The translations under genes were made by a program, and so were the position numbers. The notes under the pieces were generated by a model that saw nothing but the letters and a program-made list of their open reading frames with translations, was not told the DNA's origin and made no database searches. From the IMG/VR virus record IMGVR_UViG_3300038345_000144: a stretch of DNA of 64,000 nt, one strand, 5' to 3'. This document shows, in pieces, positions 32,301 through 62,022 of this stretch. Position 1 is the stretch's first letter, and every line of letters begins with the position of its first letter. The DNA is from a virus (Duplodnaviria; Caudoviricetes).

Positions 32301-33454
32301 GCTACACTTGTGCCTGCAAAAAGAAACGCTAAAACAACTGAAGGAGTTATATAAAGCAGATGAGCAAACGAAAGAGTAGTTATGAGCGTTGGAAGGAGCG
32401 TCAGAAAAACGCTTCCCCCTATGCAAATCAAGCCGTTTGTAGTAAATGCAGAAATTGTGAATGGGTGAGAACACACGCATATTGCAGTGGTTTTGGCAAG
32501 GCTACAAGATTGCCCTCTGACACTTACTGGAGCCTAAAACCAGGATATTGTACGCAATTTTATCCTAAAGGAAATACCGAAGGTTTAGGATTTATTATTG
32601 GTAAAGGAGACACAACAAATGAGTGACATTGAACAGAAAATTATCGGAAAATCCGTTAAAAGTGCCTGCATTGACGGGTATGAAGTAACTATTGAGTTTA
32701 CAGATGGAACGGTATTTAAGTATGAAGCCTCCGACGGAGGTTATTCTTCTTATAGTTTTAATGAGGTAAGATAAGATGAAGAGAGATATTAGACTTATAG
32801 ATATTGTTGCTATACTCTCTCCAAGACATTCCTATTGTGTAAGAATTAACGGAGAAGCACTCAAAGATTATCTGCGTAGAGATGAATTAACTTATGGTAT
32901 GTTACAGATGTATGTAGCGAAAATCGGTAGTTGTTATCATCTTAACGAAGACCATCTTGTACTTGATTTAGTAACCCGTGATAATTCTTTGGAGGGATAA
33001 TATAATGGATAATGAAAACGATAAGGAACAGGAGTGTTCAGGCAACTGCGACACTTGCCCTAATAAAACATTTGATAGCGACAGTGCTTACGAGTTTATT
33101 TGTAATAAATACGGTTGGGTAGTTTAATGAAAAACAATTGTAGTGAATGTGTGCATCATTATAAAGATTTAGGCTATTTGCCAGAAGAGTGCTGTGTTTG
33201 TTATATTGACGAAGACGGCTATCATTCAGAGTTCGTTCAGATAGATAGAGAAAAGTGTGCTACCTGTCGAAAGAACGCAATAGAGGTATGTGCAAATGGC
33301 GTACCTGATTGTGAGCGTGGTCTCCCGTGTTCACCAACCCCTACCCGTGAAGAATATGACAAAATGATAGATACTACTCTTAATCTTATAAGAGAGATAA
33401 GAGAAATGGTTAATAATAAACCAGAATAATGAGTTACCCAGTTAATCCTAACTC

Positions 33455-52242: not shown

Positions 52243-54480
52243 CTACTGTAATGCCTTCTTTTTCCGCTTATTCTCAATCTTGCATAATACCGAGTCTGCC
52301 CACCACCAAAAGAGTCTAACTATGCACACAATTAAAAGCAACCCCAAAATCGCCCCAAGAAATTGTATAAACAACACGAATATCACATAAAAGACAGGCA
52401 TATTCCACGCTACACTTAAATCTGTTACCCAGTCGCCTAACAAAACACAAATAACATAGAGACTGCCAATGAAACTGGCTAATGCTCCAACGACCCCTAA
52501 CATAAGAGCCAGCATTATGCCAAACTGTTTCAATGGTCTTTTGAGTTCCAATTTTTTATTCATTATCACGATACCTCCTCTATGGTTTGAAACTGATAAT
52601 GACACCACAGGTTTTTTAATTCATCATAAGTAAAGGTGATAGTCATATCAGACGGCTCTTTGTTAGCCTCAAGTACCTTCTCAAAGAGTTTTTGCTTAAT
52701 AGTAATATTGGTTGGTTTTTCAGGCTTACTATCTTTCGTGTCTGATGTAGGCGGGTAAGAATGAACCGTAAGCCAATATTCAATAGGACTATCCAGTGTT
52801 ATCTCATACTTCTCCCACGGCTCCTCTTTACCATCATTTATGCCTCCACAAAAGTAATACTTATCATCTTCTTTGATAATATAAGCACACCAACCACCAT
52901 AGACAATATAAAAAGTAGTACCAAGACCCATATAGTTGATTACCTCTCTTGCGGTCTTGCAATATATACCGTGTCTTGTCTCTACTTCCGACATTAAAAA
53001 CTTATCTGACATCATAAATATTAACCCTTTGTAGCCAAGTAAATTGTTTTATTCTCATCATCAATAGTACAATGATACTGACTAAACATTATCTTATCAT
53101 ACTCAACTGGCTCACTATTTAAGTAAATGTCATAGGTTTTACGCTCTTCCAAGCGTTCTTTGTTGGTTTCTTGCATTTGACTCATTTGCGTCTCATAAGT
53201 TTGTTTAGATGTTTCCCAATCAACCATATTTGTAGTAGCAACAAAACAATTTACCACAAACAAAATAGCCCAAAGCCAGCAACTACCACCTCTTTCAAAT
53301 AAAGAAGCCCCTGTCAAGACCAGACATAAAAACATCAATACTCCTGCAAAGATGCCTATAAGTAAAGCAAGTCTATCAGGCTTGGTTACAGTTTCACTCA
53401 AATAGTTCAATAAAAATTCTTCGTTAGACATTTTGTACTCCTTTTATAACATCATATATTTTTGAAATCATTAGCAGGCTACAAAGAAGCACTACTGATG
53501 CCTGTATTATACCAATCAAAATTTCACCGTTGGCAAACCAAAGTGTCGCTGAAATGGTAAAACAGATAATAGTTATCAATTTCAAAATAGCATCGGCAAT
53601 AGTAAACTGCCTCCAATTCACATAGCCCTTCTTTTTATCTTTCTTCATTAGTAATTAACTGCCTCCTGTCGTGTTATAGCGTTCATACACGCCAACCTTT
53701 CTCCATTTCTTTGTTAATTTCTACCCTTAAATCCTCTATAAACTGATTAAGGTTATTATAATAAGTGCAGGTTTTAGACATATTCAAAGTATGCTTTAGT
53801 CCGTCGTCCATCCCCAGTACAATCCTATTAGGTTCATTATCAGGCATCATTACCTTAACTAATTTTTCAGGATTGATATATAAATTAAATTCAGGTATTT
53901 TAACTAACATTTATATAACCCAACCTTTGCTCATTTCTTCACTAATGCTTTTGCGTAAATCCTCTACGAACAAATCCAGATTGTCATAATACTTACTTTC
54001 CTTTGATAAGTTTACATTACTCACCGTATCGTTATCAAAGTGAATTTCAATCTTATTGGGCGTGTCATCGTCTTTTCTTATTTTTACAATTTTTTCAGGA
54101 TTTACATATAAATCACAAGAGGCAACTTTAACTAACATTTATACTGCCTCCATTTCTTCTGTTAACTTCAACATCTTATCCTTATAATAGTCCACAATGA
54201 TTTTCCAAAGGTCCTCATCCATTGGTATATCAATACTATGTGCCAAATGGTAATTAGGCATTATATCCCAAGATTTGCTTTCCCTTCTATATCGAAGAGA
54301 ATGGAAAAAGCGAAGAAAAATAGAGTTAGTGCTATGCCCCTGTCTTTCAATTTCCTTTTTAACACGCTCGTCCTCGCTATGCTTTCTATCAGCACCATAT
54401 TGAAGGTCTTTAATAAGTTCTGCGTACTTATCACGCTCACTCTTTAATGCGGTGTACTTCTCATACTGTTCCGAAGTCAT
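52243..54480 (-). other. seven small genes including tandem paralogs 53683..53910 and 53911..54138
   Basis: both paralogs MLVK....LY.NPEK.VK...YY.NL..F.EDLR....EM.KGW. Confidence 0.75.
53021..53431 (-). CDS. membrane protein family B
   Basis: YDIYLNSEPVEYDKI...IDDENKTIYLATKG. Confidence 0.7.
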   Translation of the reverse strand: MSNEEFLLNYLSETVTKPDRLALLIGIFAGVLMFLCLVLTGASLFERGGSCWLWAILFVVNCFVATTNMVDWETSKQTYETQMSQMQETNKERLEERKTYDIYLNSEPVEYDKIMFSQYHCTIDDENKTIYLATKG

Positions 54481-54512
54481 AAAATCTCCTTTTATCTTTT
54501 TGTAATGATTAA

Positions 54513-54542
54513 ATTATATTAAAAGTGATGAATACTTGTAAA
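54513..54542 (-). promoter_or_regulatory. promoter TTTACA-N18-TATAAT
   Basis: exact hexamers. Confidence 0.75.
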
Positions 54543-54553
54543 TGGTCTCAATT

Positions 54554-54604
54554 AAAAAACCACTTTACCATTTTTGCTAAAATACAGCAATTTTGGTAAA
54601 GTGG
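54554..54604 (-). terminator. intrinsic terminator closing the transcript that carries array 2
   Basis: 11-bp stem ccactttacca/tggtaaagtgg followed by T6 on minus strand. Confidence 0.75.
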
Positions 54605-54610
54605 CGGTCT

Positions 54611-54770
54611 CAAACGCCCTCCGAACTCGGAGAAATGAAAACTAAATAGTTTCCGTTGGCGAGAAGATAGAGAAACCCCCATAAAGAGAAACCCCCATAA
54701 ATGAGGAAAACAGGTTCAGCAACCCTTACAGATTGAGTCTGTATGAAATACCCCCTGTTATGTAGGGAAC
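54611..54770 (-). CRISPR. degenerate type I-E-like mini-array 2 (3 repeats, 2 spacers, one 16-bp internal duplication)
   Basis: GTTCCCTACATAACAGGGGGTATTTCA, GTTTTCCTCATTTATGGGGGTTTCTC, CATTTCTCCGAGTTCGGAGG; spacers of 32 and 31 nt. Confidence 0.7.
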
Positions 54771-55010
54771 TTACCAATAAAGATTATAACAATCCTTATA
54801 ATCACAATCTGGGTCAGAAGAGTAAACTACCATAACCTCATACCCAAGTCGTTTTAACTCTTTTTTAGTAGCCTCACTTCTGATAGTGATTTTCTGTACG
54901 GTATTTTCACCTCTTGCGATAGCCCGCTTAATTGCACCTTCGACACATTCTATTTCGCTTTGAGCCTTTGTCAATTCAGTCATTTCCTTTGCAGTTTTAG
55001 CGTCAATCAT
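54771..55010 (-). CDS. hypothetical protein (paralog-like of 34210..34446)
   Basis: MI.AK.A.E...L..LGY.V......Y...W in both. Confidence 0.7.
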   Translation of the reverse strand: MIDAKTAKEMTELTKAQSEIECVEGAIKRAIARGENTVQKITIRSEATKKELKRLGYEVMVVYSSDPDCDYKDCYNLYW

Positions 55011-55472: not shown

Positions 55473-57047
55473 TATGTTTCCTCGTATTCAGAAAAATCCT
55501 GATGAATTACTCGAAGTACAACTCGGAACATCGCATTAGCATCTTTCTGATTAGCAATCTCTCCTGCTTCTTCAAAGTTAGCAATACTTTGACGCATCTT
55601 GGTATCAACAATAAACAGCAGAGGAAATTCGTGCTGTTCAGCCGTATCACAATACGCATCAAACTTCTTTTGCAACTCATAACAATCGTCAAGTGTTATT
55701 GTTCTCATAACAAACTCCTTAACCGTCAATCATATCAAAGAACTCTTGTTCAGGGTAATAATTAGACTTATACTCATCGCAAGTTGCACACTCTTCTGTA
55801 TCACAATATGCACAAGAACTGCAATCACGATTACAAGCCTTCTTCATTAACTCTTCAAATCCTGTCATTCTGTCTCCTCCTGAAGATAAATCTTCTTCTT
55901 AATATTGACTATTATCAATAACTCTTCCATTTCCGCAATCAAATTATCGGTTGAAGTAGTATCTCTATTAGCGAGACGCTCTGTAAACCTATGTCTTTTG
56001 AGAATACGGATTGCCTTTCTAACCTGTCTGGGAGTAATGGGCTTGTCGCCCTGATACTTAACCGCCAGTTCGTGTAAAATCTCGTCACTCATTGTCATCA
56101 TCTTCACCAATAAACTTAAATCGGGCATAAAAACCCTCATTCTTCAAAGTCTGCTTAATGCGGTCTAATGTGGACATATCCAAATATGAGCCATTCAAAG
56201 AAATACCCGTAAGCCAAGTATCAGCAGTAATCTCACCAGAGTCCAACTTATCTCGATTGATTATTCCGTGAAGAAAATGCTCTCGTCTTTCGTCCTGTGT
56301 CGATATAAAATAATCACCATTACGCTTAAAAATGGTGAAGGTAACAGGTTTTGCTGTAATCTCTTTTGTAGTAATCATAATTATTCCTCCGTATGATAGC
56401 CAATATAATCACGGATTTCATTAAGAAATTCCTGTGCTTCCTTACCCATAGAACTCATACTGCCTTCGGGTCTGTCCTTGAACTTTGCTGTTTCGATGAG
56501 GTCATCTACGAGCAACTGAACTAACTCAATCTTCTCATTGAGGTTCTTCTTTCTCTGTTCGTCGATAGCGGAGTCCCCGTAAGGCTCCGTGCTTCCAATT
56601 AACTTGTTAACGATTTCGTATGTACTGTATGTCATTTTATCTCACCTCGAAAATTACCTTGTAGCCTAAATCCCTCAAATCTTCTGTAAGTTCCATTAGG
56701 AATGTATGAAGTTCCAAAACACCTACATCAATGTGGTTGAAGTCCATACCTCTCTTGTCCTTTGTTTTTACCTCAAACAAACCACCGAAATTATTTGTAC
56801 TCTTGCTGACGGTATAAAGAATAGGGCGTTCTGGGTCAATACAGTCCTTTGGCTCACGGAACCCAACCTTTACCATCTCATCGTAGGTCATAGGTACTCC
56901 CTGTCGCTCACACTCTTCGATAATATCGTCAATATCGGAGTCATTGAGGCTTTCCCTACCCCTCTGTTCTTCTTCATCTAACTTATCCAAAATGATTTTT
57001 CTGATGAGTGCCTTTCTCTCTTCTTCTGTGAAAGTCTTTGTTGCCAT
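55472..57047 (-). other. cluster of small hypothetical genes
   Basis: 55472..55729, 55865..56140, 56085..56378, 56381..56635, 56637..57047. Confidence 0.7.
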
Positions 57048-57079: not shown

Positions 57080-57109
57080 ATTATATTAAATTAGCACCTA
57101 ATTTGTCAA
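57080..57109 (-). promoter_or_regulatory. promoter TTGACA-N18-TATAAT
   Basis: consensus hexamers; probably drives the operon ending in array 2. Confidence 0.8.
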
Positions 57110-61568: not shown

Positions 61569-61597
61569 ATTATATTATAATAGTCAGCATTTGTAAA
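61569..61597 (-). promoter_or_regulatory. promoter of helicase operon TTTACA-N17-TATAAT, abutting the last repeat
   Basis: TTTACA 61597-61592, TATAAT 61574-61569. Confidence 0.7.
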
Positions 61598-62022
61598 GGA
61601 ACCTCCGAAAGTCGGAGAGATTTACCGTCTGCGATTACCGAGCCGTCCCTCATTGAATAACCTCCGAACTCGGAGACAATAACACTTAAACTTATAAGAC
61701 TGTGTACCCCTTGAGAAAAACCTCCGAACTCGGAGAAGTATCGTTGGAACTGCATATCCGTGTGACGATTTGTGATAAACCCCCGTAAATACGAGGAAAA
61801 CTTGCAGGTTTAATTGTTGCCTCCTGCCCCATAGAATAACCCCCGTAAACGAGGAACCAAAAGGTAGCACTGCCCGTCAAGCTATACGAGTGAGAAACCT
61901 CCAATTTGGAGAAAAAGTTGCCTCTTGTTTATACTTATGCTAAACCTCCGACACGGAGAATACTGGTTAATCACTGATAGAAAATTTCCAGCATTGAAAA
62001 ACCTCCAAACCTGGAGAAACAC
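61597..62022 (-). CRISPR. degenerate type I-E-like CRISPR-like array 1 (8 repeats, 7 spacers), no cas genes in window
   Basis: hairpin repeats (approx. GTNTTCYYC-loop-GGRGGTTWWTCA) at 57-60-bp period (one 47); spacers 31,21,31,31,32,33,31 nt. Confidence 0.8.

Follow-up and report, generated by a model that had tools for sequence, protein, structure and literature searches.

The locus described here is a mini-array of three hairpin repeats with two unique spacers between them, located at 54554-54770 on the minus strand of a 64-kb window (i.e., the whole stretch of phage DNA that was analysed), the same strand that carries all the genes around it. In minus-strand order, the region comprises the TAA stop codon of the open reading frame 54771..55010, repeat R1, spacer 1, repeat R2, a 16-nt copy, spacer 2, repeat R3, a terminator and a promoter-like site. 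The frame that precedes the array, ORF79 (54771..55010, minus strand), has a good ribosome site and encodes a 79-aa protein of phrog_5321, whose function is unknown; it is the last gene of an operon of eight tightly packed small genes, the likely start of which is a perfect promoter-like site (TTGACA-18-TATAAT, 12/12) at 57080..57109 on the minus strand. A terminator scan from 57109 to the array returned just two weak hairpins, both within a phosphatase ORF, and none was convincing. Directly 3' of the array, an intrinsic terminator (54554..54605, minus strand) consists of a long hairpin (-24.4 kcal/mol, z -5.85) with a U6 run behind it, and next to it lies a fresh promoter-like site (TTTACA-18-TATAAT; 54513..54542, minus strand) for the next gene (54139..54480). 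The position at the 3' end of an operon, with repeats running from the base after a stop codon to a strong terminator, is as a sequence-only reading of this DNA had described it, and the array is most simply regarded as the 3' tail of the operon transcript. Another promoter-like site (TTGACA-16-TAGAAT, 11/12; 54947..54974, minus strand) lies inside ORF79 and could also give rise to transcripts of the array; in X2, one of the strains compared below, a SNP at 54971 falls in its -35 box. In X16, the one RNA run that contains part of the stretch, a single 255-nt contig spanned 54910-55010, short of the array. Elsewhere among the 124 ORFs of the window, one matched Pfam PF07737 (ATLF, anthrax lethal factor N/C-terminal domain; E 3.2e-6), and another displayed an adenylosuccinate synthetase match (3e-27).

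All parts of the array are on the minus strand. R1 (54743..54773; GTTCCCTACATAACAGGGGGTATTTCA) begins at 54770, the base next to the TAA of ORF79, with a stem-loop at 54768-54751 (TTCCCT/AGGGGG, 7-nt loop) and the tail TATTTCA at 54750-54744. As the array abuts this stop codon there is no room for a leader, and its absence, already pointed out from the sequence, was corroborated. Spacer 1 (54713..54743) has 31 nt and is identical in three strains; it is followed by R2 (54684..54712; TGTTTTCCTCATTTATGGGGGTTTCTCT), with a stem-loop at 54707-54692 (TCCTCA-TTTA-TGGGGG) and the tail TTTCTCT. The second copy of a 16-nt tandem duplication (54669..54684), corresponding to the 3' half-stem and tail of R2, then precedes spacer 2 (54639..54668, 30 nt) and the terminal repeat R3 (54610..54638; TCATTTCTCCGAGTTCGGAGGGCGTTTGA). 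The stem-loop of R3, TCTCCGAGTTCGGAGG, is the same as that of repeats 6 and 7 of array 1, an eight-repeat array of the same family (61594..62022, minus strand), and its tail is degenerate (GCGTTTGA). The 15-mer CTCCGAGTTCGGAGG, previously said to be shared by one repeat with two repeats of array 1, indeed has exactly three copies in the window, at 54618-54632, 61661-61675 and 61721-61735, whereas shuffled sequence gave 0.07. The boundaries first drawn make the spacers 32 and 31 nt long; with the boundaries adopted here, which give each repeat a 5' flank of 5 nt and a tail of 7 nt, the spacers measure 31 and 30 nt. The 16-bp tandem duplication repeating the 3' half of R2 was likewise found, both by TRF (54669-54701, period 16, 2.1 copies, 100%) and by a repeat search, which placed its copies at 54669-54684 and 54685-54700; the sequence thus bears out the observation in all its elements. 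Through the duplication, an ATG also arises eight bases after a stretch of GGGGG; the 44-aa frame that starts there (54548-54682, minus strand) crosses spacer 2, R3 and the terminator and is probably meaningless.

The relationship between the two arrays was assessed with covariance models built from array 1 alone, using four of its repeats first and then all eight, and run over the whole window with filters off. With the eight-repeat model, R2 scored 29.9 bits (E 4.7e-6), a value that falls among those of the array-1 repeats themselves, and R3 scored 17.5 bits (E 0.02), losing points in the tail only. R1 reached only 8.9 bits, a score that alone is not significant, and approximately 30 matches as good were found in the 128 kb of searched sequence; it lies on the right strand, 43 nt ahead of the R2 stem, with a tail fitting the consensus, and by our arithmetic the chance of such a match on the right strand at a distance of 42-44 nt is roughly 7e-4. 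As a member of the family R1 is weak, and it is assigned to it by position. With a score of 0.4 bits, the extra copy produced by the duplication is not a repeat in its own right. Stem-to-stem gaps in the mini-array are 43 and 42 nt, and those of array 1 are 42, 32, 42, 42, 43, 44 and 42 nt, six of the seven falling within 42-44 nt. Thus, the proposals that both arrays belong to one repeat family and share the same geometry at separate loci are borne out, with models from array 1 alone recovering R2 and R3 and with R1 remaining weak. The only other matches below E 0.05 in the whole window were at 32723-32748 and 56528-56551 on the plus strand, each of them solitary and inside or beside ORFs. 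The former (18 bits; CCTCCGACGGAGGTTATTC) is the only repeat-like hairpin with a fitting tail outside both arrays; being solitary and inside the small ORF 32598..32774, it was rejected as a repeat and is probably a product of chance.

No Cas family was detected among the 124 ORFs of the window, and a comparison with GenBank phages gave no DNA match or useful protein match for this phage. Its helicase was likewise absent from IMG/VR, and its phosphatase ORF from JGI metagenomes. A search of IMG/VR with a pattern of two consecutive repeats matched one record, IMGVR_UViG_3300021431_002946 (hereafter G001), a genome of 467,383 bp with terminal repeats that is rated complete. The CCA-adding enzymes of G001 and of the window are 54% identical, and G001 is therefore a distant relative. 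Using the model from the window, at least six arrays of the repeat family were identified in G001, all on one strand and with a 59-61-nt period. One of these, of five repeats, is located directly behind cas6e in an operon with the order Cse1-Cse2-Cas7-Cas5-Cas6e-array-Cas3, and at least five further arrays are dispersed. Cas profile scores were 83 bits for Cse1, 146 for Cas7e, 75 for Cas5 and 68 for Cas6e; Cse2, with 22.8 bits, fell just below the cut-off, and Cas3 displayed HD and helicase domains. No Cas1 was found in the complete G001 genome by a search whose control was positive in seven reference genomes. In the Cas3 of G001 (L019:10271-12982), residues 19-89 also form a Cas2-like domain at the N terminus (PF09707; E 2e-8), and this protein is a Cas2-Cas3 fusion within an adaptation-less type I-E-like system. 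The presence of the repeat family within this cas operon, together with the lack of Cas1, ties the family to an adaptation-less type I-E system in the lineage, and the finding of the same system in G001 by a structure-based model indicates that the architecture characterizes the lineage and is not peculiar to one assembly. In G001, the upstream stop codon precedes the array by 4, 7, 44 or 45 nt, a layout that is therefore usual for the lineage. Further, the last repeat of an array has a degenerate tail that runs into the -35 box (TTTACA) of the promoter behind it, namely that of a helicase operon in the window (61569-61623) and that of cas3 in G001 (L019:10189-10270); this overlap with the next -35 box in both phages sets the arrays exactly between transcription units. 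The Cas proteins acting on the mini-array would most likely be the phage's own adaptation-less type I-E set, of the kind verified in the related G001.

The fold of the repeats was compared across 32 units, 11 from the window and 21 from G001. They share a plan in which a 5-nt flank precedes a 6-bp stem closed by a loop of 3-7 nt, the tail behind it has 7-8 nt, and successive stems are 42-44 nt apart. Stem positions were paired in 189 of 192 cases, although 30 of the 32 stem-loops were distinct, with T-A/C-G and A-T/G-C swaps in the stems; all six pairs are kept in each of R1, R2 and R3. A T.G wobble at the base of the stem is present in 30/32 units, and since it would be an A.C mismatch on the opposite strand, the conserved structure corresponds to an RNA fold of the transcribed strand. 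The tail behind the stem follows TT(T/A)TTC, the C at its sixth position being lost in six of eight terminal repeats vs one of 24 internal ones (Fisher p 2e-4, both phages); R3 (GCGTTTGA) and array-1 repeat 8 (TTCCTTTA) both obey this rule. Such a pattern would follow from a role of the tail as 5' handle for the guide that comes after it, and would not be predicted for plain hairpin elements. The array displays regular stem-loop repeats with a 7-8-nt 3' tail and unique spacers between them, the tail being constrained only where a spacer follows. It departs from the textbook definition of a CRISPR array in two respects, the near-identity of repeats and the leader with an adaptation module. R1, R2 and R3 differ in their stems and loops, structure and tail being conserved and sequence not, and TRF and the repeat search of the array gave the 16-nt duplication alone. 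As the repeats retain only the hairpin shape and the short tail, standard CRISPR finders miss the array. The repeats had no match to Rfam CRISPR-DR families, whether the gathering score or a limit of E 10 was applied, and a tRNA-like or other Rfam family was ruled out for lack of matches. Structured spacers were also considered and rejected: the fold of spacer 1 is slightly better than those of its shuffles (p 0.04), unlike that of spacer 2.

Parts of the stretch were present in 20 public runs from 16 studies, mostly of cattle gut. In the Logan assembly of run X1, made independently from the probable source sample, a contig of 184,946 nt showed zero differences, duplication included, while contigs from X2 and X3, which belong to other studies, had exactly 16 nt missing at 54669. 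The duplication, for which an assembly slip had been contemplated, is therefore real and a strain variant. X2 differs at 24 of 871 positions (~2.8%), and the segment 54652-54842, which includes R1, spacer 1, R2 and the end of the ORF, is free of changes in both X2 and X3; at the X2 rate, ~5 changes would be expected over these 191 nt (Poisson P ~0.005 by our arithmetic, or ~0.05 for the array part of the unchanged block alone). Spacer 2, with three SNPs in X2 (54647, 54648 and 54651) and one in X3 (54651), varies about as much as the non-coding DNA next to it, and one SNP falls in the 5' flank of R3. Across the three strains, no change affects any of the three hairpins or either functional tail. 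The most variable part between strains is 54481-54553, the promoter and 5'-UTR of the downstream gene: its 73 nt contain six SNPs, and both X2 and X3 have GTAT inserted after 54484. All strains carry the same spacers, which are thus inherited and not newly acquired.

In the source strain, the duplication places 16 repeat-derived bases between the predicted R2 cut and spacer 2, which probably spoils the 5' end of guide 2: this guide would start with a wrong seed, unless the weak second hairpin is cut as well. Because spacer 2 varies and the duplication is disruptive, at least guide 2 may be decaying. Extended to the whole locus, this would make the array a decaying relic of a once-working one, carried without function, an alternative that we regard as improbable. 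It accommodates the low score of R1 (8.9 bits), the three SNPs in the 30 nt of spacer 2 in X2, a density similar to that of the adjacent promoter region, the tolerance of a duplication that should disturb guide 2, and the failure to find spacer targets; however, hairpins and functional tails have stayed intact in three strains next to a segment that gathered six SNPs and an insertion, and each unit retains its full set of stem pairs.

Regarding targets, no credible protospacer for either spacer was found in GenBank phages, IMG/VR, GTDB genomes, JGI metagenomes or G001. A relaxed pattern of spacer 1 matched two genes in the JGI metagenomes, one of a carboxylesterase (L002/L003, 27/31) and one of a Reg_prop/Y_Y_Y adenylate cyclase (L001, 26/31); about 0.5 matches for the relaxed pattern, and about one 27/31 match in such a collection, are expected by chance, and both genes were rejected as targets as chance-level matches. 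The carboxylesterase match is located at a NYRLNLYGF motif in two metagenome contigs (L002:1745-1773 and L003:3488-3516), with mismatches at spacer 1 positions 12, 18, 24 and 25; three of these are every-sixth positions, a pattern partly forced by the search pattern itself.

The lack of a cleavage target for both spacers and of any cas gene in the 64-kb window would also suit a decoy or regulatory array hijacking host Cas proteins, either as an RNA anti-CRISPR or as 'Cracr' crRNA-like RNAs, with repeats that mimic the host type I-E system and soak up Cas6e/Cascade or steer them against host immune genes. There is precedent for this in phage type I-E Cracr arrays of two or three spacers that are processed by host Cas (bioRxiv 10.1101/2024.10.29.618823). 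Nevertheless, we find it unlikely for the mini-array: Cracr and Racr pseudo-spacers are short (~21-24 nt), a length that the full-length spacers of 30-31 nt do not fit; the repeat family occurs inside the cas operon of G001 itself, so that a cognate phage Cas6e exists in the lineage; and a pure decoy requires neither conserved spacers nor a difference between terminal and internal tails. A role unrelated to CRISPR, as weak terminators, mRNA 3'-end stabilisers or sites for some other RNA- or DNA-binding protein, is very improbable, for although a terminator scan flags R1, R2 and four array-1 repeats as a hairpin with a T-rich tail and single hairpins fold no better than shuffles, the repeat hairpins are weak (-5 to -8 kcal/mol, with interrupted tails, vs -24.4 for the real terminator), the T.G wobble at the stem base speaks against a DNA palindrome, and the fixed 42-44-nt spacing, the unique spacers, the terminal-only tail loss and the place behind cas6e in G001 would all be left unexplained.

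With these alternatives weighed, we consider it likely that the locus is a genuine two-guide CRISPR mini-array of type I-E geometry in a huge cattle-gut phage. The interpretation put forward in the sequence-only reading is supported overall, with the qualifications that R1 is weak, that ORF79 may contain a promoter of its own, and that the duplication varies between strains. Judging from the promoter, the gene packing and the terminator, the array would be transcribed as the tail of the eight-gene operon mRNA, from which the guides would be excised. A Cas6e-type endonuclease would cut at the 3' base of each hairpin, leaving the upstream mRNA with the R1 hairpin as its end and freeing two guides: guide 1, formed by the 7-8-nt R1 tail as its 5' handle, spacer 1 and the R2 hairpin; and guide 2, formed by the R2 tail, spacer 2 and the R3 hairpin. 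Both would then load into a Cascade complex, which would recruit Cas3. Without Cas1, the repeats would never be re-copied, and their sequences would therefore drift while selection keeps the hairpin and the tail.

More tentatively, it is possible that the lineage of huge phages to which this one belongs employs 3'-tail guide cassettes within its ordinary mRNAs. If so, the Cas6e cut at the first hairpin would define where the operon mRNA ends and perhaps how stable it is; a guide would be made only when its operon is expressed, so that different guides would be timed with different gene classes; guides would be hard-wired without Cas1, evolving by point mutation and by small duplications such as the 16-nt one; and repeat diversification would shield the arrays from recombination. 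Should the reading of the locus hold, CRISPR arrays would exist in a form invisible to standard detectors, leaderless, with one to few guides, their repeats having only a fold and a 6-7-nt tail in common, and tucked into the tails of mRNAs at a distance from the cas genes. Some cas operons of huge phages and plasmids may then have been wrongly counted as 'array-less' or 'orphan'. These phages would also show that non-repetitive multiplexed guide arrays occur in nature, and would allow the evolution of guides in the absence of Cas1-Cas2 to be traced from strain to strain.

Among known systems, the repeats resemble those of canonical type I-E, such as E. coli K-12 CRISPR-I, in which Cas6e processes a 61-nt crRNA. 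The E. coli K-12 repeat, as read from its record, follows the same plan (GAGTT-CCCCGC-GCCA-GCGGGG-ATAAACCG, with 32-nt spacers), and the phage arrays share with that system the G/C-rich stem of 6 bp, the 7-8-nt tail as 5' handle, spacers of ~30-32 nt, a period of 58-61 nt and, in G001, the neighbouring Cse1, Cse2, Cas7e, Cas5, Cas6e and Cas3. The phage-repeat model did not recognize the E. coli I-E repeats, and the likeness is therefore one of plan and not of sequence. Unlike canonical I-E arrays, those of the phages are tiny, scattered, leaderless and tucked behind stop codons, their repeats are nearly all distinct, and G001 is devoid of Cas1. CRISPR systems lacking Cas1, Cas2 and Cas4, with compact arrays having a median of six repeats, have been described in huge phages (Al-Shayeb et al. 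2020, PMC7162821), and G001 and, probably, the phage of the window fit the description. The arrays reported in that article were found by standard repeat finders and are usually near effector genes, whereas arrays of unlike repeats, dispersed over hundreds of kilobases or placed in mRNA tails, are not described in the portion on which we draw.

Viral mini-arrays of one or two spacers, located far from cas genes, are known to use host Cas proteins in inter-virus competition (PMC11656645). These are likewise arrays of few spacers in virus genomes and away from cas genes, but their repeats are identical to those of the host and their spacers are directed against related viruses, whereas the phage repeats studied here are mutually unlike, the cognate cas genes are apparently the phage's own, and no target was found. 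Cracr arrays, in turn, are phage-borne and type I-E-like, carry two or three spacers and are processed by Cas6e, with Racr being single repeat units; in one Cracr array, a pseudo-repeat with a changed loop is poorly processed (bioRxiv 10.1101/2024.10.29.618823), which could be a precedent for the duplication or the weak R1 impairing processing in the mini-array. In contrast to the short Cracr spacers, which match host cas promoters, those of the mini-array are full-length, and the lineage in which they occur encodes a Cascade of its own.
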